Shown in pieces: positions 3,401-38,996 of a stretch of DNA of 64,000 nucleotides. The notes below the pieces were generated by a model, which was not told the origin of the DNA, made no database searches, and worked only from the letters and a program-made list of their open reading frames with translations. The DNA lies in sequence record NC_052652.1. The stretch is one strand, 5' to 3'. The stretch comes from Escherichia phage vB_EcoM_PHB05. Numbering within the stretch: position 1 is the first letter of the stretch; the number at the start of each line of letters is the position of its first letter. A program made the position numbers and the translations under genes.

Positions 3401-3427
3401 AAGGGCAGAAATGCCCTTTATTTTTAA
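3401..3427 (+). terminator. Rho-independent terminator
   Basis: aagggca-gaaa-tgccctt hairpin followed by T-tract. Confidence 0.5.
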
Positions 3428-3441
3428 AGAGAGAGGAAATA

Positions 3442-3924
3442 ATGGAACAACAAAAAGATAATACTATTGCAAAATTTGCTCGTCCAGAAGTAATGGTTGA
3501 AATTGATCTGGATGAAGGACGCAGTGTAAAATTTAGAGTTCTCAAGTGGAGTCCAACTAAAGTTTTTGAAAGGATTCCAGAACTAGGTAGTGTACTGGCT
3601 GTTCCTATGACAATGTATAATACTGCTCTTATGTCAGCAGACGAAGATCTAGAAGCTCGTATTGCTATGGCACTGATCCAATTATTCAGTGGTCTGGAAG
3701 AAAAAAACTTAGCTGCATTCTTACGTAAAATTTTAGATGAAGTTTACACAGAAGCAGGACACAGTGTTTCCGATAATTTTGATGAATTGTTTTTTGCTCA
3801 CCCAGAATTAGTTGTTGACTTAGCTGCAAAAGTTCTTGAGGTGAACTATGCCCCTTTTTTCAAACGAGGTTTCGGAAAACTGTTGACCCAATTTCAAGGA
3901 ATAGAGACTCTAGCGAAGAGTTAA
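3442..3924 (+). CDS. Tail assembly chaperone (putative)
   Basis: 160-aa acidic protein between tube and tape measure genes. Confidence 0.4.
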   Translation: MEQQKDNTIAKFARPEVMVEIDLDEGRSVKFRVLKWSPTKVFERIPELGSVLAVPMTMYNTALMSADEDLEARIAMALIQLFSGLEEKNLAAFLRKILDEVYTEAGHSVSDNFDELFFAHPELVVDLAAKVLEVNYAPFFKRGFGKLLTQFQGIETLAKS

Positions 3925-15391: not shown

Positions 15392-17965
15392 ATGTCAACT
15401 ACAATTACTAATTTACCAGAAACATCAAAAGTTAATGATTCTGATTACCTGGTTTTAGACCAATCTGATAAGACTGTTAAAAGCACAGTTTCCAAATTTC
15501 TTGCTGACACTGGGGTGGTTTTAGCCACCCAGTTGAAAGATACAGATGGAGCAGATTTAATACAATCCTCAAATGGTAATACTGTTCAGGAAGAGTTGAA
15601 TAACAATCTTCTTAATGATCGTGAACAGTGGCGTCGTAGTCTTGCAGAGGCAGGGTTAACACTTGTCGATGGTAGCTTTGAAGAGGGGGCTACAGTGGGC
15701 AGTGTAACTGATGCTATCTGGTACATGGCAGGTGCTCAGTGCTACACATGGGATGGTGTATTACCTAAAGACGTACCACCTAAATCAACCCCGACATCAA
15801 CTGGTGGTGTTGATTCTGGTGCTTGGGTTAGTGTTGGTGATATGTCATTAAAGGATAATCTTTCAAACTCCAGTAATGATAATTACGGTGATGCGCTGGT
15901 AGCAGTTAAGCAGCCGTATACTACCGCAATAAACAGAACGCAGCATGATAAAAATGCTGATGTACTTGATATTTCTGATTTTGGTGTAGATATAACTGGT
16001 GCTTCTGATGAGGGCAGTAAGTTACAACAGATATTTAATGAGTTGGCCGCAGCAGGCAAGTCTATTCGTATGCACGGGTCTGTAAAGACTACTATTAACT
16101 TAGATATACGGTGTAATGTGCTGTTTGAACCAGGGTTTAAATTAACTGGCGTGAAGCTAGAAACTGGACCGCAGACCTACATTAATATTTTTAATCGTAA
16201 TATAGATGTAAGCCATATTGTTCTAGATGGCATTGTTATGTGTTTCTACCCTGTAAGTTCCACGACTACTGTTAGAAACAAGAGATGTATTACGTTTACA
16301 TCAAATACGTTAGAAGACTCGTGTGTCCGGGTGGGCGGTGATAACCTCTCTGTGCGTAACGTGTTAATTTCTAACAATACTTTTAAGAACTCCGGGTCAC
16401 GTGTTCCAACAGCAATTCGCCTAATCAATGTCTCAAACGTTGAGGTAAGTTTTAACCTTATCCAGGAGTATGGTAGGCCTATTTATCAAACAGCAACTCG
16501 CTCTTTCTCTAACTACAATGTCAATATACACCACAATAATGTGGTTTGTGATTATGGTATAGTTCTTGAGGGTACTACTGCTTTTAGAGTTAGTAAGTTC
16601 ACAATTGCTGACAATGACATTGTTTGTGAGGTAAGGAACACAGCAGCAGGTGGACGAGATGCGATTGATGTCCGCTATGGCACTAGCGGACAAATACTCA
16701 ATAACAACATCAGAACTAATGGCAGAAACATTCGTTTATCCAATACTAAAGCTGATGTTCTATTTAATGATATGGTATCGAGTGCAACAAGTGCATTCTC
16801 TGTATTGATGGCTAGTTGCTATGAATCATCTTTTATTGGTAATAAAGTTTTCAATAATTCTACTGCTGAAATTATTGTTGTGCATGTGCAGACAGAGGCT
16901 GGAGGTCTTTACACGAGTAACAACGTAAGAATCGAATCCAACACTATCAAAGGTTTTGGTCGTCTGATTCGTGTGTTGGACACCAAGGATTATGTTGTTA
17001 CTAACAATAGATTAATAAGGACTTCAAACAATGGTAATGCAGTTATTGTTGCAGATGGTACTAGTGACAGAGGCCAGGTGCATAGCAATGTGGTAGTTGG
17101 TCCTGCTGGGGTTGTTGTATCTAGTATCAGCGGAACCAACAATGCAACAACCACTGCTGATACACTTCTGAGTGTTGCAGCTAACAGCAAGACCGTAACA
17201 GCCGTGGCGAATGGATTAGTTGATCCAGACTTGAATAATTCGAAGGCATTCATCTTCAATGTTCAGGTATCTGATGTTCAGATGTTACGAGCTTTATCAT
17301 CAACTGGTGCATCAAACGCCAAGACAGTATCTCAATTCATGGCTAGGGTATCCGGTGCAACCTTAGCTTGGAATGGTACTGCCTCAGTATCTGAAGTGGG
17401 TGGACCACCTGACATCTTCGTAAATGGTGTTCTTCAAGACTCATACGGTGCAGAAGATTATATATTCTACCGGTCAGGTATGCTTATTGACTCACAGAAT
17501 AAACTCAGTGTCCGTGACTTCCAGTGTACTGGCGATGGGGATACTACCGATGATGGTACAGGGGAAATGACGCTCCGTAATATGGCAGCAGCACAAGCAG
17601 CTGAGGGGGCTATTCACAGCGCATTCTTCCGTTCTCCTCTGGTTATGGATGGGGTTATTTACAATCCTGACACCACAGGAATTTATAAAAAATCTTACTT
17701 TGATACATCTCTAGATCCTAGAATGGCTATAGGACAAAAAGCTGATGGAACCTACGTTATTATTTGTGTTAATGGTAGATACGCAGATGGGGTAAGTCCA
17801 GGCTGCACTATGCAGCAGCTAGCATCTAAGTTTGTAGCCCTGGGTTGTATCAACGCAATGAACTTGGATGGCGGTGGTTCAGCTACTCTTTGGTATAACG
17901 GTACTATCCTTAATACCCCGTCGGATGGAAGTGAACGCCCTGTTTACCATTGTATGTATGTGTAA
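15392..17965 (+). CDS. Tailspike / tail fiber with right-handed beta-helix region and C-terminal LDGGGS domain
   Basis: 857 aa; conserved fiber N-terminus; repeated Asn-rich beta-helix-like segments; C-terminal NAMNLDGGGSATLWYNG. Confidence 0.55.
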   Translation: MSTTITNLPETSKVNDSDYLVLDQSDKTVKSTVSKFLADTGVVLATQLKDTDGADLIQSSNGNTVQEELNNNLLNDREQWRRSLAEAGLTLVDGSFEEGATVGSVTDAIWYMAGAQCYTWDGVLPKDVPPKSTPTSTGGVDSGAWVSVGDMSLKDNLSNSSNDNYGDALVAVKQPYTTAINRTQHDKNADVLDISDFGVDITGASDEGSKLQQIFNELAAAGKSIRMHGSVKTTINLDIRCNVLFEPGFKLTGVKLETGPQTYINIFNRNIDVSHIVLDGIVMCFYPVSSTTTVRNKRCITFTSNTLEDSCVRVGGDNLSVRNVLISNNTFKNSGSRVPTAIRLINVSNVEVSFNLIQEYGRPIYQTATRSFSNYNVNIHHNNVVCDYGIVLEGTTAFRVSKFTIADNDIVCEVRNTAAGGRDAIDVRYGTSGQILNNNIRTNGRNIRLSNTKADVLFNDMVSSATSAFSVLMASCYESSFIGNKVFNNSTAEIIVVHVQTEAGGLYTSNNVRIESNTIKGFGRLIRVLDTKDYVVTNNRLIRTSNNGNAVIVADGTSDRGQVHSNVVVGPAGVVVSSISGTNNATTTADTLLSVAANSKTVTAVANGLVDPDLNNSKAFIFNVQVSDVQMLRALSSTGASNAKTVSQFMARVSGATLAWNGTASVSEVGGPPDIFVNGVLQDSYGAEDYIFYRSGMLIDSQNKLSVRDFQCTGDGDTTDDGTGEMTLRNMAAAQAAEGAIHSAFFRSPLVMDGVIYNPDTTGIYKKSYFDTSLDPRMAIGQKADGTYVIICVNGRYADGVSPGCTMQQLASKFVALGCINAMNLDGGGSATLWYNGTILNTPSDGSERPVYHCMYV

Positions 17966-18011
17966 TTATCTGGTGGGACTGAGCTAATGGCGTAGATTTC
18001 ATAGCAAAAAA

Positions 18012-18027
18012 CCCCGCTTCGGCGGGG
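18012..18027. terminator. GC stem-loop (ccccgc-ttcg-gcgggg) flanked by A-run; second copy at 18602..18617
   Basis: Perfect 6-bp inverted repeat after tailspike stop; A-tract upstream rather than T-tract downstream, so orientation ambiguous. Confidence 0.35.
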
Positions 18028-18057
18028 TAATCATTGAGAATAACAATAGGAGTACAT

Positions 18058-18156
18058 ATGGAATCTCAACTCAGTCAACCTAAGCAGGTTATCAACGTCA
18101 AAGTGAACAAGCAGAGTATCGCTCATGATTTAAAAAGTAATGAGAACGCACTATGA
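18058..18156 (+). CDS. Small ORF (32 aa), duplicated at 18648..18746
   Basis: ATG with AGGAG RBS; stop overlaps next start in ATGA; below ORF-track size cutoff, read from DNA. Confidence 0.25.
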   Translation: MESQLSQPKQVINVKVNKQSIAHDLKSNENAL

Positions 18157-18362
18157 GAAAATTTTTAATAGGTATGTTCTGTACATATCCTGATAATAAA
18201 GTCAGTTCTACTAAAGTTTGGAATGCTATTGGTATGATTGTTATGTCCAGTATGTTTATTTATTTGGGAATTGATAAAGAAATTCCTGAATGGATGGGCT
18301 GGGCTTTTGTTTTTATGATCACACCATCCAGACTAATGAAGAATCGTTATTATTTGTGTTAA
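18153..18362 (+). CDS. Duplication-derived variant of small membrane protein (C-terminus altered by repeat junction)
   Basis: First 63 residues identical to ORF 18743..18988, then reads across junction (ends NRYYLC). Confidence 0.3.
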   Translation: MRKFLIGMFCTYPDNKVSSTKVWNAIGMIVMSSMFIYLGIDKEIPEWMGWAFVFMITPSRLMKNRYYLC

Positions 18363-18934
18363 TGGTAGATACGCAGATGGGGTAAGTCCAGGCTGCACTA
18401 TGCAGCAGCTAGCATCTAAGTTTGTAGCCCTGGGTTGTATCAACGCAATGAACTTGGATGGCGGTGGTTCAGCTACTCTTTGGTATAACGGTACTATCCT
18501 TAATACCCCGTCGGATGGAAGTGAACGCCCTGTTTACCATTGTATGTATGTGTAATTATCTGGTGGGACTGAGCTAATGGCGTAGATTTCATAGCAAAAA
18601 ACCCCGCTTCGGCGGGGTAATCATTGAGAATAACAATAGGAGTACATATGGAATCTCAACTCAGTCAACCTAAGCAGGTTATCAACGTCAAAGTGAACAA
18701 GCAGAGTATCGCTCATGATTTAAAAAGTAATGAGAACGCACTATGAGAAAATTTTTAATAGGTATGTTCTGTACATATCCTGATAATAAAGTCAGTTCTA
18801 CTAAAGTTTGGAATGCTATTGGTATGATTGTTATGTCCAGTATGTTTATTTATTTGGGAATTGATAAAGAAATTCCTGAATGGATGGGCTGGGCTTTTGT
18901 TTTTATGATCACACCATCCAGACTAATGAAGAAT
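18345..18934 (+). repeat. Tandem direct repeat, copy 2 (590 bp)
   Basis: Second copy immediately adjacent to copy 1; sequence diverges after gaat at 18934. Confidence 0.85.
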
Positions 18935-27480: not shown

Positions 27481-30300
27481 ATGTATCCTATTCCTTTATT
27501 TATGTCAACAACATCAGCTTCAGTAGTAACAGCTACATCTATAACCACTTCCTCTATTGGTATTGCAATAGTTGGTAGTAAAAAGCAACTGACATACACA
27601 GTTTCACCAGAAGATGGTGCGTTATTTGATATAGCTTTTTCATCTTCAGATAATACCAAAATGGTTATAGATAATAATGGTATGATGGAGTTTGTTGCTG
27701 AAGGCGGTTTTGATGCAATAATGACAGCTAAAAATAATTTAGGTGCTGTCTTAACTGATCAATCTGGTGGCTATGCTTCAGAATTAAGTGTGTACACTGA
27801 AAGTCTGTCTGCTATGGATGCAGGAACTACTCAACAATTGGTTGCTACAATCAGTCCAGAAGGTGCTAAAGACCTTCCAGACATGGTGATTACGTACACC
27901 ACAACAGATCCAGAAGTAGCTACTGTAAGTCCTACAGGGTTAATAACTGCTCTTAAAGATGGTAGTTGCCGTATAGGTTGTACTGCAACTTATCAAGGAA
28001 CAGTGGTGGCCTCTGATAGTTCTTATTTAGGTGTTAATGCTGTTCCTGTTATTTCTAATGTAACAGCCGTGGCAAACAGCTATGGAGACATTCGTGTTGC
28101 TTGGGATGTAGCTGATCCGCTAGATGGTGATACTTATACTGTAGAAGTATTAGATTTAAGTAATAACAGTGTCCAGTGGACTACAACAACCACGAATACT
28201 CATGCTTACTTTGATATCTCTGACTCTATTCCTCTTTATGGGTTTGCTCCAACATACCTTAAAATTAGCGTTAAGAGCACCAAAGCAGCACCCGTTATCT
28301 TTAATAACTCAATAGCTACAGATGATTCGTTCATTAAAGAAGTTATTGTCTTTGCTGGACAAGATAACGTAAATGCACACTTTACAGAACTATCTGGTGC
28401 AAATAAAGCAGTAATGAGTAGCACAACAACCCGTAATGCATATGCTACGCAACGTGGTTTAGCAAATGCTGAAGTTCTTCCGTTAAATGCAGCTTCTGGA
28501 TCATCAGCAGCAGATAAATATGCAGATGATAAAGCCGGAACAGGTACACCAGACAACTACTGGTATGATCTGGATAACGCAGCAGATGGGCCATGCTTAA
28601 CTAATTTTATCACTAAAGTCACACCTTATGCAAGTAAGGTTAAAGCAATTATTTGGGGACAAGGTGAAAATGATGCTGTATCAGCATCTTCGACTGTTGC
28701 AGGTAGATACAGTAACACTACACGTTACCATGATGCTACGATAGCTATCTTTGATAAGATGCGTACAATAGTTCCTGCTTCTCAAGCAAAAATTGTTTGG
28801 CAGATCCTAGGACGTTCTTATCTATATGGTGTAGAAGTTAATGGTGTGGATTGGCAGAAATACAGAAATGTACAAAGAACCATCTCTACAGCACGTGACG
28901 ATGTTATCATTGGTTCTTGGGTGGATGGTGCTGAACGCTACAGTGGTTATGTTTATGAAGAAGGTATTGATGGTCGTATCCATTATATTTCTTCTGTATA
29001 CCAAACAGCAGCTACAAAACTTGCTAAATCAGCAGCAGACGGTACAGACTTAACATCAACATCACCTGTTTGGGTTGATATGGCTGTTCCAACTGGAGCA
29101 ACAGCTATTTCCCAAGCTAATCAAGATACAATTTTAGCATGGGATGCTCAAGGTTATAGTAAACACTACTTCCGTAATATTAACGTCTTAACAGCATCTG
29201 TATTAACTGAACAAACGCTTAATACGAACAGTTATACGTTTACCTATGCAGATCAAGTAGAACAATATGGTTTTGCAGCAGGTACTACGATATTTGATGT
29301 TGCATATTATGACGAAGCAAATGATGTGTTATCTCCTTTAGTACGTTTTAATGTTAGCGTTACAGCAGGAAAAGTAGAAGATAAACCTGTCGTGATGGAC
29401 TATGATTTGACGCAAGAAACTCTTCCATCAGATGTTAAGGTTAATGGTGGGAACTCTTTTGCTCGTGCCTCTGGAGATATACTTGTAGCCACTAACACCT
29501 TGGTTGCTCCGTTGGAGTATGTTGGTACTACCCCTGTAGGTAGACGTGTAACAGCTAACACAGCTACACAAATTTTTGTCAACAACGCCTTAACAAGTGC
29601 AAGCCCGTGGGTAAAGACCAACTTAACTGTTGCAGCTTCATCTGATAAATCTCCGGCTGGAACTACTGCTAATGTATTCAAATTAACTCCGACTACAACC
29701 TCTGGTAGTCATATCTTAACTGCAACATATACTAACGCGTACAACATATCTGCCGGACGTAACTGGTCTGCCTCTGTTTTCTTGAAAGCGAACGGGATTA
29801 CTAAGGCCAAACTAAGATTAAAAGCAGGAACTGAAGTTAATGAGGGTACTTTTGATTTAGCAGCAGGTACATTCACAGGAAGTGAAGCTAATATTATATC
29901 TATGGGCAACGGTTGGTATCGTGCTATTCTGCATAAAACAGGGATAGCCAAACAGTCCTCCATAAGTTTTGAAATAATTGCCTTGGATGCAACTGGTGCG
30001 GAGATTTTCGCTGGAGATGGTACTAGTAACCTTGCAGTTTGGTTGCCACAGCTTGAAGGTGCTTCTACAGGAGAAACATCAAAAGCTGGATCGCCTTATG
30101 TCTGCACATATCCTGGAAATTTAGGAGGAGTATCCTTCACTATACCAAGGAACGGACATACTGGTGTGGATGTTTACTATTCCAACGGAGACGTTGTTCG
30201 TGATGTATTCTCTGGCACAGCATCTACTTGGACAATAAACTACTCCAGCTTGTACGATTGGGGATCAGTCTTTATTACAGGTTTGAAATATTACGACTAA
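27481..30300 (+). CDS. Tail fiber/spike with SGNH-esterase-like segment
   Basis: 939 aa; N-terminal Ig-like region; central AIIWGQGENDA motif reminiscent of SGNH/sialate-O-acetylesterase-type hydrolases. Confidence 0.45.
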   Translation: MYPIPLFMSTTSASVVTATSITTSSIGIAIVGSKKQLTYTVSPEDGALFDIAFSSSDNTKMVIDNNGMMEFVAEGGFDAIMTAKNNLGAVLTDQSGGYASELSVYTESLSAMDAGTTQQLVATISPEGAKDLPDMVITYTTTDPEVATVSPTGLITALKDGSCRIGCTATYQGTVVASDSSYLGVNAVPVISNVTAVANSYGDIRVAWDVADPLDGDTYTVEVLDLSNNSVQWTTTTTNTHAYFDISDSIPLYGFAPTYLKISVKSTKAAPVIFNNSIATDDSFIKEVIVFAGQDNVNAHFTELSGANKAVMSSTTTRNAYATQRGLANAEVLPLNAASGSSAADKYADDKAGTGTPDNYWYDLDNAADGPCLTNFITKVTPYASKVKAIIWGQGENDAVSASSTVAGRYSNTTRYHDATIAIFDKMRTIVPASQAKIVWQILGRSYLYGVEVNGVDWQKYRNVQRTISTARDDVIIGSWVDGAERYSGYVYEEGIDGRIHYISSVYQTAATKLAKSAADGTDLTSTSPVWVDMAVPTGATAISQANQDTILAWDAQGYSKHYFRNINVLTASVLTEQTLNTNSYTFTYADQVEQYGFAAGTTIFDVAYYDEANDVLSPLVRFNVSVTAGKVEDKPVVMDYDLTQETLPSDVKVNGGNSFARASGDILVATNTLVAPLEYVGTTPVGRRVTANTATQIFVNNALTSASPWVKTNLTVAASSDKSPAGTTANVFKLTPTTTSGSHILTATYTNAYNISAGRNWSASVFLKANGITKAKLRLKAGTEVNEGTFDLAAGTFTGSEANIISMGNGWYRAILHKTGIAKQSSISFEIIALDATGAEIFAGDGTSNLAVWLPQLEGASTGETSKAGSPYVCTYPGNLGGVSFTIPRNGHTGVDVYYSNGDVVRDVFSGTASTWTINYSSLYDWGSVFITGLKYYD

Positions 30301-30302
30301 TA

Positions 30303-30332
30303 AAAAAGGAGCCATTAGGCTCCTTTTCTTTT
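30303..30332. terminator. Bidirectional terminator at convergence of the two transcription blocks
   Basis: ggagcc-atta-ggctcc hairpin flanked by A-tract (5') and T-tract (3'). Confidence 0.55.
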
Positions 30333-30335
30333 ATC

Positions 30336-30716
30336 TTAATCAGTGAAAATTACGCTCACATCTTCTTTAGAGAAGAGTTTATGATCTTCACCTTTTGTCT
30401 CAAGAGTTTCATACAGGTTAAGAAGTTCTGAAACATCTTTCTCTACCAGTTTCTTCAATGTTGCAATTTTCTGTTTGCGACTCTTAATACGTTCAGCTAC
30501 GACCTTACGTTGGTATCCAGCAGTACGATAACCTGAGAAAGTTACACCAGTAAGACTTGCAGTTACAGGATCGTAGTGACGTTCAATCTGAAATTTATTA
30601 AAAGGTACAGCGTCATCACGAATAATCTTACCGCCATTACTTACTTGACGAAGACCAGTAACTTGTTCCAGTCGTGCCATAGAAATCTTTGGAGACAGAC
30701 CAGAGTCCAGGTTCAT
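30336..30716 (-). CDS. Hypothetical protein
   Basis: ORF 30336..30767; start trimmed to internal Met (30716) to avoid overlap with methyltransferase gene; start uncertain. Confidence 0.3.
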   Translation of the reverse strand: MNLDSGLSPKISMARLEQVTGLRQVSNGGKIIRDDAVPFNKFQIERHYDPVTASLTGVTFSGYRTAGYQRKVVAERIKSRKQKIATLKKLVEKDVSELLNLYETLETKGEDHKLFSKEDVSVIFTD

Positions 30717-30723
30717 ACCGTTG

Positions 30724-31455
30724 TTAATCAGTGCTTTCAGGGTGATTTTGCTGTTCAGTGTACTCATTTAGTCGTTCCTCCGCTTGCTTAAAAATATTTA
30801 CATCGGCTTCACAGCCTAAGTATTCTCTACCTGTTAAAAGTGCCGCAACTTGTGTTGTTGCACTTCCAGAGAAGAAGTCTAAGACTACATCTCCTTCGTT
30901 GGTATGTATATTAATAAGGTCACAAAACAAAGTCAAGTGTTTTTGTGTTGGATGAAAACGATCTGCTCCTTGATAGATAGGATACTCAAACACACCCTTA
31001 TGGTAGGAAGCATTGAAGGTTGGCTTCGAACCTTTAACACAAACAATAGCCATCTCTTTAGCGTTACTAAGGTAGTTAACACCACTATTGATGGGTACAG
31101 GGTTTGTTTTAATCCATTCAATAGTACGGAACATACGAAAACCAAGCGGTTCAAGGATTTCACGTAGCTCCTGGATCTTCCAGATATCATACCAAACTAT
31201 GCAAGTACCACCTTTTCTAAGCACCCTATAGGCTTCTTTGAATACTTCTTTAAAGTAAGGAATATCTACAACGTCCCAGTCACCAAAGTTGTAAGATACA
31301 CGGAATCTATCCGTATTTTTTCCAGTAGGCTCTCCAGATTGAAAATTTGTGTCACGAGAAATAGCATATGGTGGGTCAGTAAGAATCAAATCTACACTAT
31401 TGCTTTCGAGGGTTTGCAGGTAGTTTAATGCAGTGTTGTTTACAAATTCGCTCAT
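30724..31455 (-). CDS. DNA methyltransferase, beta-class amino-MTase (N6-adenine or N4-cytosine)
   Basis: DPPY catalytic motif near N-terminus and FFSGSATT AdoMet-binding motif near C-terminus; GAAGGAGA RBS. Confidence 0.7.
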   Translation of the reverse strand: MSEFVNNTALNYLQTLESNSVDLILTDPPYAISRDTNFQSGEPTGKNTDRFRVSYNFGDWDVVDIPYFKEVFKEAYRVLRKGGTCIVWYDIWKIQELREILEPLGFRMFRTIEWIKTNPVPINSGVNYLSNAKEMAIVCVKGSKPTFNASYHKGVFEYPIYQGADRFHPTQKHLTLFCDLINIHTNEGDVVLDFFSGSATTQVAALLTGREYLGCEADVNIFKQAEERLNEYTEQQNHPESTD

Positions 31456-31467
31456 TATATCTCCTTC

Positions 31468-31493
31468 AAAGAAAAGGAGCCGTTAGGCTCCTT
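31468..31493 (-). terminator. Stem-loop ggagcc-gtta-ggctcc (near-identical to hairpin at 30308)
   Basis: Perfect 6-bp stem, downstream of minus-strand gene 31516..32463 with T-tract on minus strand. Confidence 0.4.
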
Positions 31494-31515
31494 ATATTCA
31501 CACAATATTTAACTA

Positions 31516-32463
31516 TTAGAAACAGTGCAGGAAGTTTCGACCATATTGCAAACCAATAGGAGCAAACGGGATATCATCATCGAAATCTTGAACAACAGGT
31601 TCTGGTTCTTTCGGTGCTGGCTCTTTCTTCTCTACTTTTTTAGTTTCTTTCTTAACTTCTTGTACTGGGGTAGACATTCCACGGATAGCCGCAGCTACTT
31701 TATCAGACAAAGCAAGAACTTCACGAGCAGCTTCAATAATCTCTTCTGCCGTTACAGTTTTACCTGTATGATCACGACAAGCGTTAAGAATTGCGTGTCC
31801 AACTGAAGCACCAAGATCATAGTCAGTCACATCAACACCACGATCTTTAGCAATTTCAGCTTTCAGAGTAACAGTTGCAGATTGTACCACACCAGCCAAA
31901 TCGAAAGCATCACCTTTCACACCAGCACGTAGAAGCTCCAGAGCGCCGTTTACAGCGTGTCCTGTTTCAATCCCTACGGTATCACGTTTTTTGTAGTTAG
32001 GCTTGTTACCGTCATTATTAGATGGCTTATTTCCACCTTTTGAAGAGGATTGCGCTTGCTGAACACCTTCTGTTGAAAGAATAGTGATTTTACCTTTAGA
32101 GGAGTTGTAGTATGTTTTGCCATTCCATTCAGAAGGTTTAACATCCATAGTTAGTTCTACACCTTTTTCGATAGTAACCCACTTATCACCATCTTTAACT
32201 TGCAGGTTTTCATGTTCTGGGTGCAGTTTAACTTCACCTAAGCTAACCCAAACACCTTTATCATCAGCACCAGCACCTTTCTCTTTAATAAGCAGAGATG
32301 CTTTGTGAGTTGATTCAATTTTCTTATCTGGCTGACCTGCAACCTTAATATAAGAAACTTTCATTTCATCAAACTTATCTAGTTTGACATATTCGACAAT
32401 ACCTTCAGCCCAGAATGCTTCTTTTTTAGTACGACGGTCGATTTCAGAATTAATTACTGGCAT
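31516..32463 (-). CDS. Putative ssDNA-binding-like protein carrying an SSB-type DFDDDIPF tail motif
   Basis: 315 aa; beta-rich N-terminal region, Lys/Pro-rich linker, then DFDDDIPF 15 residues before the C-terminus. Confidence 0.4.
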   Translation of the reverse strand: MPVINSEIDRRTKKEAFWAEGIVEYVKLDKFDEMKVSYIKVAGQPDKKIESTHKASLLIKEKGAGADDKGVWVSLGEVKLHPEHENLQVKDGDKWVTIEKGVELTMDVKPSEWNGKTYYNSSKGKITILSTEGVQQAQSSSKGGNKPSNNDGNKPNYKKRDTVGIETGHAVNGALELLRAGVKGDAFDLAGVVQSATVTLKAEIAKDRGVDVTDYDLGASVGHAILNACRDHTGKTVTAEEIIEAAREVLALSDKVAAAIRGMSTPVQEVKKETKKVEKKEPAPKEPEPVVQDFDDDIPFAPIGLQYGRNFLHCF

Positions 32464-32479
32464 AAATTCTCCTCTATAA

Positions 32480-32878
32480 TTACATTACTTTAACACAAAA
32501 CTCTCGTAAAAGAGTAGCGTCAGTTTCTTCCAACAGGTATTTACCAAGACCAATACCAAATCCTATTTCACCACTTTCAAAATGGAGAATTTGTATCTTT
32601 TCTCCACCAAGGTTAATTACTTTTGCTTTTCCAGGATTGTCCAAAACATCTCGTATTGTGTCCTGTAGTAGCATAAGTTCACGTTTTGTGATAGTGGTTT
32701 CAGATATCTCTTTGTCTTCTACCCGCACTGTTAAACGGTTGTATCCACCAAAGAGACATAGTATTTGAATAAAAAAGGTATTATCTTGAGGTTCAACATC
32801 TTTTTTAGTTAGTTCAAGACGATTAGTTTCTCTACTATAGAACGTCTCGACTAAGATTTTAGAACGATTGTCTGTCAT
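32480..32878 (-). CDS. Hypothetical protein
   Basis: 132-aa ORF. Confidence 0.35.
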   Translation of the reverse strand: MTDNRSKILVETFYSRETNRLELTKKDVEPQDNTFFIQILCLFGGYNRLTVRVEDKEISETTITKRELMLLQDTIRDVLDNPGKAKVINLGGEKIQILHFESGEIGFGIGLGKYLLEETDATLLREFCVKVM

Positions 32879-32921
32879 TCAAGTTCTCATAATAACACAT
32901 AATTGTAAGGTTTGTCAACAC

Positions 32922-36727: not shown

Positions 36728-36794
36728 TCTCCCTCCTTAAAATATTTCTAAAGTCTTAATTTGTTAATACTGTACCATAAATTAATTGTTTTGT

Positions 36795-36814
36795 AAAGGG
36801 GCTTTCGCCCCTTC
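36795..36814 (-). terminator. Stem-loop aggggc-tttc-gcccct (reverse complement identical to hairpin at 25436)
   Basis: Perfect 6-bp stem between minus-strand genes. Confidence 0.35.
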
Positions 36815-36817
36815 TTG

Positions 36818-37213
36818 TTATTTATTGTCAGCACTTAATTGTACTTTAATAAGGCAATTAGGGACACCATTGGTATTTCTCAAGCCTACACGGTCAATTT
36901 TAACTGTTCCTGTTAAGCCACTAAAAGTGGAAACAATGTTATTAATGTTTTCATCCTTACTAGCGATATCAAGAACAACTTTATCACTAACATTTTTCAG
37001 CATGCGATCTACAAGCTCTCCCACAAAACCACTGGTAGTTTGAATGAGAAGGTATAGGCAACCATCCTCAAACCACAAATGTTCGCCATAAGCATAACCG
37101 TATGGTTCTAACTCCGATCCATCTTGAAATTTAAACTTGGCAATAGTTTTCGTATAATCATACCCTAACGCAGAAGGGGATACCCCATAGAGGATATTTT
37201 CGTTGTCTTTCAT
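36818..37213 (-). CDS. Hypothetical protein
   Basis: ORF 36818..37342 trimmed to Met at 37213, which has AAGGAGAG RBS and removes overlap with primase-helicase. Confidence 0.4.
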   Translation of the reverse strand: MKDNENILYGVSPSALGYDYTKTIAKFKFQDGSELEPYGYAYGEHLWFEDGCLYLLIQTTSGFVGELVDRMLKNVSDKVVLDIASKDENINNIVSTFSGLTGTVKIDRVGLRNTNGVPNCLIKVQLSADNK

Positions 37214-37223
37214 ATTTCTCTCC

Positions 37224-38996
37224 TTAATAAGAACCATCAGGAATATTCTCTGGGTTACTTGTGTATTGATCGTAATCGTGAAGTGTCGCTGTTTTAATCT
37301 CATAGAAGAAACTACCTGCTGCACCAGTCTCTGAGAACTCACGGTTCTTTAGGATGTAGCAATATGTGCGGTTACGTTCCATAGGATCTTCAGCTTGTTT
37401 ATCACGCTCCAGCGCAATTGTGATACCAGCACCTTTAGCAAGGAAGCTACTACCCATTGCATCATCTTCTACAATATGTTCATTACTATTGTTAGAAGAC
37501 TTTTTAACGTGTGAAATTACAACAATGGTAATTGCGTACTCTTTCATAATGCGTTTGAGCCACGTCGCAAGTTCCTCTTGTTGTGACACGTCCATACCAG
37601 AAAGCAAGTCAGAATAAGGGTCGATAACAAGAATGGTTACTCCGAAATAAATAATCATTTCCAGAACCTTCTCTTTAATCACATCTACGTTAGCTCCACG
37701 ATCATCACAAACATAGAAACGTGGTGTTCCATCTTCTCGTTCGTAAAAATCACGAATCTTTTCTTCATTATCTTTTAAAATCTTTTCCTTCTCTTCTTTT
37801 GTTTTACGGTGAAGAGGGATGTGCAAGAATGAAGACAATAAGTTACGAGAATACTTCTTATACGTTGCCTCCAAAGATAAAATACCAAGAGTATGTTCTG
37901 GGTGTGCAAGAATAATGTGCTTTGTAATCTCGTTAACCAACAGTGTTTTACCGATACTTGTTTTTGCAAGTATAACAGTAATTTCTTCTTCTACCAAGCC
38001 TCCACCTAACATATTAGAAGCAACACGCATGAATGGAGGAAGGGTGATCATTTTAGCTTCCAGGCATTCCAAGGCTGCTTCATACAGTACGTTAGAAGCA
38101 TAAACACCAGCAGGTGTGTACAGTTTAGCTTTGAAAAAACGATCAAGAAAGTGATCAATTTTTCCTTCTACTAGTGCCTGGTTAGGATCTTTAACATCCG
38201 TTAGTTCCATCACATAAACTTTATTACGTGGTAAGATTTTAACACATTTCTCAACTGCTGCACGTCCAGCTTCATCATTATCCATACACAGAACAATCTT
38301 TTTAAATTGATCTAAAAATTTATAACGATGTTGAAGCTGCTTATGCAGAGATGTTTCGCCACAAGTACCAGATACTACAGCAGGAACAGGATATTTACCG
38401 CCCTTGTTATAATCTTTTAGCATCTGTGTTGCAGCCAGCATATCGTGTTCACCACCAACGATTAGAATAGTACCGCTGTGGTTACGATATTTAAACTCCC
38501 CAAAAAGATCACAATCCTTTCCTGTTTCACCAATAGGATGTGAAAAATCTTTTGGATCGATACGTTGTTTATACCCAGCAATATTGTAATCTTTAGTTGT
38601 AGGGTATAATGTTGAAATTACTTCGCCAGTAGCTTCATCGTACATATAGCGTACACCGAAAGGTTTAGAGATATCTTCACGAATACCGCGATAACCTTTT
38701 GGATTAGTTCCAGTGCTGGCTTTTAGCTTATCATGTACTTCTGGATTAAACTCACTACCCAAGATATCCTCCTCTTCAATTTCTTCGCCGTGTGCATTTA
38801 ACCATTTTTGATCAGGGATAGTAAAGCCACAAGAAAAACAATGTGCGCCTCGATGGTCTTCATCGGCATCTAAGCCATATACCATCAAATTGTTTTGTGA
38901 TCGATCACGCCCTCCTTTCATACAACGAGGACACCCAGTATGTCCTTCTTGACTTAGGTCAATGTTATACCCATATTTATTTACAACATAAGACAC
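37224..38996 (-). CDS. DNA primase-helicase (T7 gp4-like)
   Basis: 590 aa; N-terminal Cys4 zinc ribbon (CPRC...CFSC), central TOPRIM-like region, C-terminal P-loop helicase region. Confidence 0.8.
   Translation of the reverse strand: MSYVVNKYGYNIDLSQEGHTGCPRCMKGGRDRSQNNLMVYGLDADEDHRGAHCFSCGFTIPDQKWLNAHGEEIEEEDILGSEFNPEVHDKLKASTGTNPKGYRGIREDISKPFGVRYMYDEATGEVISTLYPTTKDYNIAGYKQRIDPKDFSHPIGETGKDCDLFGEFKYRNHSGTILIVGGEHDMLAATQMLKDYNKGGKYPVPAVVSGTCGETSLHKQLQHRYKFLDQFKKIVLCMDNDEAGRAAVEKCVKILPRNKVYVMELTDVKDPNQALVEGKIDHFLDRFFKAKLYTPAGVYASNVLYEAALECLEAKMITLPPFMRVASNMLGGGLVEEEITVILAKTSIGKTLLVNEITKHIILAHPEHTLGILSLEATYKKYSRNLLSSFLHIPLHRKTKEEKEKILKDNEEKIRDFYEREDGTPRFYVCDDRGANVDVIKEKVLEMIIYFGVTILVIDPYSDLLSGMDVSQQEELATWLKRIMKEYAITIVVISHVKKSSNNSNEHIVEDDAMGSSFLAKGAGITIALERDKQAEDPMERNRTYCYILKNREFSETGAAGSFFYEIKTATLHDYDQYTSNPENIPDGSY

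Follow-up and report, generated by a model that had tools for sequence, protein, structure and literature searches.

The 64-kb stretch of Escherichia phage vB_EcoM_PHB05 DNA analysed here (NC_052652.1; hereafter the window) belongs to a phi92-like myovirus (Justusliebigvirus, Stephanstirmvirinae). It contains, between two near-identical hairpins termed T1 and T2, a cassette of two minus-strand genes that encode a DNA methyltransferase (methylase; phi92 gp155) and a small protein of the phi92 gp154 family. Bases 29300–32500 are 99.1% identical to Escherichia phage W22 and about 98% identical to dozens of other members. As the initial annotation of this DNA had noted, the cassette lies at the convergence of the structural and replication blocks: the plus-strand tail gene stops at 30300, and minus-strand open reading frames (ORFs) run from 30336 onwards. 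Long ORFs occupy the minus strand to at least 41247, with replication genes among them.

The last gene of the tail-fibre block (27481..30300, plus strand) encodes a protein of 939 amino acids (aa) with a Big_2 domain, according to the ORF list and the Pfam and PHROG matches, and its 3′ part is mosaic among relatives. It is followed by T1 (30304..30327), which has a 10-bp stem and T-runs on both strands. The gp154-family gene (30336..30767, minus strand) encodes 143 aa, predicted to form an N-terminal domain and then a long helix, and the methylase gene (30724..31455, minus strand) encodes 243 aa with a match to PF01555. These two genes overlap by 44 nucleotides (nt; 30724–30767). Two minus-strand ribosome-binding sites were read from the sequence: GGAGGA at 30776..30781 for gp154, inside the methylase coding sequence, and AGGAG at 31461..31465 for the methylase, a few bases past the T-run of T2 and annotated likewise in phi92. 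T2 itself (31474..31493, minus strand), identified by the terminator scan, consists of an 8-bp stem followed by TTTTCTTT on the minus strand. On its other side lies the gp156 homologue (31516..32463, minus strand; 315 aa), the backbone gene that adjoins this position in all relatives. It is 60% identical to phAPEC8 gp085, is found in 341 records by tblastn and is labelled a single-stranded-DNA-binding protein in some of them. Beyond gp156, the minus-strand order is gp157, nucleotidyltransferase, HNH gene, DNA polymerase and primase-helicase.

Predicted terminators at the junction

T1 reads AAAAGGAGCC-ATTA-GGCTCCTTTT at 30304–30327, and T2 reads AAGGAGCC-GTTA-GGCTCCTT at 31474–31493. T1 was found by a plus-strand terminator scan and by our own minus-strand scan, and T2 by the terminator scan. 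The near-identity of the two stem-loops, claimed earlier from the sequence, is borne out, since 21/22 bases are the same. As a direct repeat they match over 27 nt with 89% identity (24/27), and as an inverted repeat over 26 nt with 85% identity, at a spacing of 1168 nt. Within the 64-kb window, AAGGAGCCNTTAGGCTCCTT has exact matches at the T1 and T2 sites only, with 0.01 expected from shuffles, and no further copy of their shared 20-mer is present.

All four RNA folds of the two hairpins fall between −13 and −18 kcal/mol. T1 folds at −15.4 kcal/mol on the plus strand and −18.3 kcal/mol on the minus strand (z about −5). T2 folds at −14.0 kcal/mol on the minus strand (centroid −13.3), with a z of −2.5 and 6 of 200 shuffles folding at least as well; the other three folds (z −4.8 to −5.3) are better than all 200 shuffles. 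A U-run follows the stem of T1 on the plus strand (TTTTCTTTT) and on the minus strand (TTTTTTATT), and that of T2 on the minus strand (TTTTCTTT). Because T1 has a T-run on each strand and lies where two converging genes end, between their stop codons, it is likely to be a bidirectional terminator. T2 is a predicted terminator for the minus strand only.

Both sites are already annotated as predicted terminators in the public records of phages Paula and PATM. The hairpin GGAGCC-N4-GGCTCC-TTTT is of a kind common among phage terminators: a search of IMG/VR gave at least 120 stretches with it, many in bidirectional form. Other terminators of the window also have the AAGG...CCTT frame. The T1 stem is invariant in 10 relatives, with a loop that varies or flips, and T2 shows no change, even in its loop, across 10 Justusliebigvirus genomes and the divergent contig L012. 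Together with the cargo slot described below, we are confident in regarding T1 and T2 as ordinary predicted intrinsic terminators, with T2 as a terminator or attenuator between gp156 and the methylase.

In near-identical genomes, the T1 loop (30314–30317, and the same site in L005, L006, L020 and L022) reads TAAT, ATTA, AATA or TATT. Each variant is the exact reverse complement of one other, giving two pairs, a pattern that suggests that the loop has been inverted repeatedly inside a perfect palindrome. No variation was seen in the T2 loop. In addition, a 35-bp stretch of Asteriusvirus EJP2, an unrelated 349-kb jumbo coliphage (L025 1501–1535), is 97% identical to T1 and its flanks, and lies at a convergent gene junction next to thymidylate synthase.

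T2 is separated from the ATG of the methylase by 16–18 nt, ribosome-binding site included; its T-run is followed by GAAGGAGATATA and then by the ATG. The promoter scan found no promoter-like site between T2 and this ATG. A gap of this length leaves no room for a sigma-70-type promoter, so the cassette is probably fed by read-through only. The same layout of terminator and then ribosome-binding site is also seen in contigs L012 and L013. The best sigma-70-like promoter match upstream is TTGACA-18-TATTAT, TG-extended, at 32889..32918 on the minus strand; with 11/12 matches it is a consensus match only, and the region shows no enrichment of promoter-like sites. The order could be read as promoter, gp157, gp156, T2, methylase, gp154 and T1, with the match at 32889–32918 as the putative promoter of the transcript running to T2. 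As an internal attenuator, T2 would stop most transcripts after the gp156 gene, the cassette would be transcribed at a low level by read-through past T2, and T1 would stop both converging transcripts.

Two other candidate signals were discarded. The sequence TTGACT-17-TAATAT (30908–30936, minus strand), inside the methylase gene, is no better than chance as a cassette promoter, because such sites are not enriched; it lies about 140 nt upstream of gp154 and resembles the TTGACG-17-TAATAT that precedes a lone gp154-like gene in contig L010. The 3′ arm of T2 could pair only weakly with the methylase ribosome-binding site, and this pairing is not preserved in L013.

The cargo slot in related phages

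A comparison of 22 related genomes and contigs covered the interval from the gp156 homologue to the tail gene. The cassette is present in 54/54 Justusliebigvirus records (gp154, methylase and gp156, 54 each at at least 90% identity), and gp154 is annotated as hypothetical in all 54 phi92-like genomes. The G+C content of the cassette is 0.38–0.40 and that of the surroundings 0.35–0.43, and the composition contrast typical of morons is thus absent. Fixation in 54/54 records and a G+C content like that of the flanks suggest that the cassette is old.

In the sister genus Phapecoctavirus (phAPEC8, Schickermooser, phiWec181 and vB_Ec-G1), only a single hairpin lies between the tail gene and the gp156 homologue, and the cassette is absent, as it also is from L016. 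A single hairpin without cargo was found in phAPEC8, Schickermooser, phiWec181, L009, L011 and Klebsiella phi1_175008, and a single hairpin with remnants of both ends of a ZCKP1-type HNH gene in vB_Ec-G1 and DIJ07P2. ZCKP1 itself has a T1 identical to that of the window and an HNH-motif gene. Two hairpins are present not only in Justusliebigvirus, including the window, where they enclose methylase and gp154, but also in the c3 clade, which comprises IMG/VR and metagenome contigs with about 61% identity to the window in the gp156 homologue. Within this clade, L008 has two hairpins 24 nt apart and no cargo, L010 has a gp154-like gene (38% identity) preceded by a promoter of its own, TTGACG-17-TAATAT, and L007 has an HNH gene and a gp154-like gene.

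In L008, one hairpin is GGAGCC-GAAA-GGCTCC with TTTTCTTTT behind it, and the other is GGAGCC-TTTC-GGCTCC with TTTTTTATT behind it. Each is the exact reverse complement of the other, which indicates a convergent terminator pair, and the same two hairpins enclose the gp154 homologue in L010. The stems and T-tracts of this c3 pair agree with those of T2 and T1 at each position. This match and the empty L008 site together suggest that the two-hairpin frame predates the methylase cargo or is independent of it. In L012, two hairpins enclose an HNH gene, methylase and gp154; T2 is identical down to the loop, and the downstream hairpin differs. In L013 (polymerase 84% and methylase 80% identical), the same gene pair lies between two unlike hairpins.

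The account of T1 and T2 that we consider well founded is that they would bound a cargo slot where late tail-fibre and replication genes converge. They would resemble each other because both derive from an old GGAGCC-stem terminator pair of this subfamily, which is present even when the slot is empty. As direct repeats of 22–27 nt, they could mediate precise loss of cargo, giving the one-hairpin state of the sister genus. Two points weigh against this account: L008 may never have had cargo or may have arisen by deletion from an L010-like state, and the account assumes both read-through at T2 and the lack of a promoter specific to the phage.

Alternatively, the likeness of T1 and T2 could be convergent, with a favoured terminator design present in two independent copies 1.2 kb apart. 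This would be in line with the frequency of GGAGCC-N4-GGCTCC in unrelated viral contigs, often in bidirectional form, with the 35-bp match at another convergent junction in EJP2 and with the AAGG...CCTT frame of other window terminators. However, the stem is found at only these two sites within the window. In addition, the c3 clade, with only about 61% identity in the gp156 homologue, has positional equivalents with the same stem and T-tracts (TTTTCTTT, TTTTTTATT), which points to shared descent or sustained constraint and not to chance. We consider convergence unlikely.

The initial annotation had interpreted the cassette as a moron-like insertion bounded by duplicated terminators. One part of this description stands: the cassette is accessory cargo at the convergence, bounded by terminators, and the comparison that had been suggested shows it to be absent from the sister genus. 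The other part, terminators duplicated by an insertion, is not supported; the unit has neither its own promoter nor a composition contrast and is fixed in all 54 Justusliebigvirus records. A more specific form of this idea holds that a recent moron-type insertion duplicated a resident terminator, that an orphan methylase shields the DNA from host restriction and that gp154 is an unrelated passenger. The sister genus, with one hairpin and no cassette at the same junction, and the 24/27 direct-repeat match of T1 and T2 are compatible with such an event, and orphan phage methylases are commonly interpreted as protection from host restriction (PMC12210895). For a duplication by insertion, however, an empty site with one copy is expected. 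One copy is present in some other lineages, but the empty L008 site has both hairpins, and in L013 the same two genes are flanked by unlike ones. The fixation of the cassette in the genus, its unremarkable composition and its lack of a promoter also argue against a recent insertion, as do the co-occurrence of gp154 with the methylase across unrelated phages and the high sensitivity of phi92-like phages to restriction-modification in the laboratory, both described below. Overall, we regard this scenario as quite improbable.

An HNH gene is variably present in the slot: it is found in ZCKP1 (L002 7940–8347), and a related copy lies upstream of T2 in L012 (270–700). In vB_Ec-G1 and DIJ07P2 (L014 and L015, near 3427–3480), only about the first 19 and the last 20 bases of this gene remain, which looks like a clean deletion. 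In about half of the Justusliebigvirus records, similarity to the window ends at about 30287–30303, in the last codons of the tail gene or in T1. These records have a different 3′ end of the tail gene, and T1 is the mosaic boundary. Klebsiella phage ZCKP1, which belongs to another genus, has the tail-gene end and T1 in common with the window at 97%. The rV5-type phages were uninformative for the slot comparison, having a different synteny around the gp156 homologue.

The T1 and T2 hairpins are routine in themselves; they exemplify the upkeep, within a phage subfamily, of a transcriptionally insulated slot in which accessory genes are gained and lost. The slot is a natural landing pad and is useful for annotation and engineering.

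The methylase, gp154 and CATG

The assignment of the methyltransferase to the beta class, made in the initial annotation, agrees with its motif order, as DPPY at residues 27–30 lies N-terminal to FSGSATT near residue 205. The protein matches PF01555 (N6_N4_Mtase) with 107 bits against a cut-off of 26.7, over profile positions 1–221 of 221. Its best PDB match is 5hek, a small beta-class enzyme (E 8e-29), to whose motifs DPPY and FSGSATT are aligned. Judged by these motifs and matches, gp155 is a beta-class N6-adenine DNA methyltransferase. In L156, a Pfam ICEA gene stands immediately upstream of an orthologue with 55% identity over the full length, and the two overlap by 1 nt. In Helicobacter, iceA1 is homologous to NlaIII, an endonuclease directed at CATG, and the adjacent hpyIM encodes a methylase specific for the same sequence (PMC2749054). 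Given the ICEA gene beside this orthologue and the site statistics below, CATG is the probable target of the window methylase.

One further protein, P0260 (336 aa), has Pfam matches to both ICEA and N6_N4_Mtase, the Pfam family of gp155, and is an apparent endonuclease-methylase fusion. In phAPEC8, a 264-aa adenine methylase and a 143-aa ORF lie between primase-helicase and DNA polymerase (L003 12271–13506). The idea that they are the same pair in another place was rejected, as they have no similarity to the cassette. The phAPEC8 methylase is unrelated to gp155, and both ORFs are absent from the window at 36728–37224; thus, each genus has a different methylase at a different place.

For gp154, Pfam, NCBIfam and PHROGs returned nothing informative. 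A word-index search found 4 clusters only, and an exhaustive profile search among 1.8 billion representatives gave a family of 32 clusters, unannotated and 125–143 aa in length. The single-sequence hhalign comparison of gp154 with one ICEA protein had a probability of 0.4%. When the profile of the gp154 family was aligned to that of the ICEA family, hhalign gave 96.3% with an E of 1.7e-9 over the N-terminal 67 columns, corresponding to gp154 residues 15–83. Both families have the pattern G-x-S...L...G...SNG...R...F/Y...R...G in common. The homology of gp154 to ICEA endonucleases is limited to this N-terminal domain and does not extend to the remainder.

The gp154 gene lies directly downstream of a methylase orthologue in nine contexts: the window, L012, L013, L146, L147, L148/149, L150, L151/152 and L155. 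The two genes overlap by 29–44 nt in 7/9 of these contexts and by 4 nt in L155, and are 32 nt apart in L151/152. The ribosome-binding site of gp154 mostly lies inside the conserved C-terminal codons of the methylase. Across the paired contexts, the methylases are 53–80% and the gp154 proteins 29–66% identical, and the neighbouring genes are wholly different, with nucleotide metabolism in some and a T7-type Gp5.9 neighbourhood in one. Methylase and gp154 thus form a conserved, translationally coupled pair. In L153, the ORF upstream of gp154 encodes a different protein with an NPPF motif. Among the contexts visible, only the c3 clade and Pseudoalteromonas phage J2-1 have gp154 without an adjacent methylase. 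In a search for further gp154 loci, the full alignment offered no stretch conserved enough to search with, and a narrower alignment led to no loci beyond Justusliebigvirus, c3-type contigs and a few short fragments.

In the window, CATG is the lowest of all 256 tetramers, with 92 sites observed and 224 expected (second-order Markov simulations; mean 224, standard deviation 14, minimum 182). It is depleted in every 8-kb block, and GATC shows no depletion. Among the contigs with both methylase and gp154, the observed and expected counts are 5/34.5 in L013, 5/14.4 in L012 and 37/81.8 in six others together. The gp154 carriers without the methylase avoid CATG altogether. Four c3-type loci (L161, L162, L163 and L167), in which no methylase lies within 10 kb of gp154, have 0 sites with about 58.7 expected per 20-kb locus; the gp154-like genes of L162 and L163 are identical, as are those of L161 and L167, and these loci therefore represent two variants of one clade and not four lineages. 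The whole J2-1 genome (142,204 bp), which has gp154 and no orthologue of the window methylase, contains 0 CATG sites with 336 expected.

For comparison, the Phapecoctavirus loci, with neither gene, have 184 CATG sites with 251 expected, an observed-to-expected ratio (O/E) of 0.73. The O/E is 1.0 in rV5, which has no tblastn match to gp154 and no methylase of the gp155 subfamily. In 106 unrelated viral loci with neither gene found in the fragments examined, the median O/E is 0.83; one locus falls below 0.1 and three below 0.45. gp154, ICEA and the methylase were sought in 120 background loci, and none was found in the fragments examined. These include L050 (IMGVR_UViG_3300022589_000028), the sole CATG-free locus of the 106 (0 sites with 39 expected); the 12-kb fragment examined of this 53-kb contig encodes no gp154, ICEA or related methylase.

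Elsewhere in the window, positions 17755–18934 contain an exact 590-bp tandem duplication (17755–18344 = 18345–18934). The repeated unit comprises the last 51 codons of an 857-aa tailspike-like gene, two small ORFs and a terminator hairpin with the sequence ACCCCGCCGAAGCGGGGT. It is present only once in the closest relatives, and JLBYU50 spans the whole query in 1114 bp; the duplication is thus either very recent or an assembly artefact.

Function of the gene pair and known systems

Our tentative reading, to which we give somewhat less than an even chance, is that methylase and gp154 form a CATG-directed restriction-modification-like module, in which both the specificity and the activity of gp154 are inferred. 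The methylase, translated first from the same message, would put N6-methyladenine (m6A) on CATG in the phage DNA. gp154 would consist of the DNA-reading N-terminal domain of NlaIII/IceA-type enzymes and a dimerising helix, and would act on unmethylated CATG DNA of the host or of competing phages. It might cut via an unrecognised active site or a partner, or bind and block. The gp154 carriers without the methylase would protect themselves by having no CATG. The design of expression would fit this module, with low read-through coupled to the methylase in the window and an own promoter in the CATG-free clade (L010).

Several findings count against such a module, for which all the evidence is correlative. 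The HNH/Zn motif EIDHKNGKY...NDAKRxHC...C..GCYW, conserved in the ICEA alignment, is missing from every member sequence of the gp154 family; gp154 shows no evident nuclease site, and its fold matches are winged-helix DNA binders only, with modest Z. The CATG specificity rests on 55% identity to one orthologue, a distance at which specificity can change. The methylase subfamily has 4141 matches compared with 32 gp154 clusters; most of its members are not accompanied by gp154, so that many methylase orthologues would work without it. Contig L151, with both genes, has 9 CATG sites against 7.1 expected and hence no depletion, although the sample is small. Finally, J2-1 (L158+L170+L171) contains 0 CCGG sites against 95 expected, and no other tetramer besides CATG falls below 0.5; at least part of its site avoidance could therefore be driven by host enzymes.

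These findings bear on two other explanations. gp154 could be a DNA-binding accessory of the methylase, such as a controller-type regulator or a targeting subunit, which is harmless to DNA, while the CATG depletion would come from NlaIII-like enzymes of the host. The winged-helix-like fold, the long dimerising helix, the absence of a nuclease motif and the translational coupling of the genes all suit such a role, and the avoidance of CCGG in J2-1 would be host-driven in that genome. On the other hand, intact gp154-like genes persist in genomes without the methylase and without any CATG, and the one in L010 has its own promoter. Furthermore, total loss of CATG combined with a solitary gp154 is seen in two unrelated lineages, compared with one CATG-free locus among the 106 background loci. 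An accessory role is therefore possible but improbable in our view.

Even less credible to us is that gp154 serves as an anti-restriction decoy, which would mask CATG or poison NlaIII-like enzymes of the host until the methylase acts. Its homology to the N-terminal domain of an endonuclease without the catalytic part, and its link to a probable CATG methylase, are what a decoy might look like. However, a decoy would be useless in CATG-free genomes, where gp154 is nevertheless kept, and NlaIII-type systems are not known to be common in Escherichia coli.

The initial annotation had expected the methylase to protect the phage DNA from host restriction. Protection of the phage from its own partner gp154 fits the data better than broad protection from host restriction. 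In the BASEL study, phi92-like phages were exceptionally susceptible to restriction-modification systems (PMC8594841), which argues against a broad protective role of the methylase and does not address CATG.

Taken together, the terminator slot and the CATG module combined are the overall picture that we favour by a small margin. A bolder proposal, which we put forward with considerable doubt, is that gp154 represents an undescribed family of small phage proteins that carry the CATG-reading domain of NlaIII/IceA without the nuclease. It would serve a lytic phage, whose own CATG sites are marked or purged, as a methylation-gated weapon that tells self from non-self, and would recruit a nuclease or bind alone to shut off host DNA. 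A CATG-directed gene pair of this kind seems not to have been described before. If the module is real, the methylase would serve self-protection and not defence against the host, the strongest tetramer bias of these therapeutic-candidate phages would be explained, and the pair would represent a new type of phage-borne restriction-modification-like system.

Among known enzymes, the M1.HpyAVI-type methylases (PDB 5hek, 5hfj) are similar to gp155 in size, motif order and fold family, but with identity of only about one third, their recognition sequence is not transferable. For the predicted terminator T2, internal attenuating terminators within operons offer a parallel, for example that upstream of dnaG in rpsU-dnaG-rpoD of E. 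coli. There too, a terminator stands in a co-directional gene string before a gene with its own ribosome-binding site, an arrangement that would lower distal expression in the window. Lambdoid morons resemble the slot in being accessory cargo, present or absent, that is insulated by terminators in a fixed position, and the L010 slot has the order terminator, promoter, gene, terminator. In contrast to lambdoid morons, the window has no promoter between T2 and the methylase and no composition contrast, and its cargo is fixed in the genus.

Two restriction-modification systems are close to the proposed module. PBCV-1 A251R/A252R is a virus-encoded CATG restriction-modification pair that places m6A on the DNA of the virus itself (PMC7248222). 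The window genes would likewise be a virus-encoded pair directed at CATG, with the difference that R.CviAII is a proven endonuclease and any activity of gp154 is hypothetical. The other is iceA1-hpyIM of H. pylori, with NlaIII (CATG) of Neisseria lactamica. The window differs from these systems in its order, with the methylase first and overlapping frames, in its carrier, a lytic phage, and in gp154, which lacks the HNH/zinc catalytic region and has only the N-terminal domain and a long helix. What the window has in common with them is the gene for a small N6_N4-family N6-adenine methylase next to one for a protein with the IceA/NlaIII N-terminal domain, and one orthologue of the window methylase stands beside a full ICEA gene.

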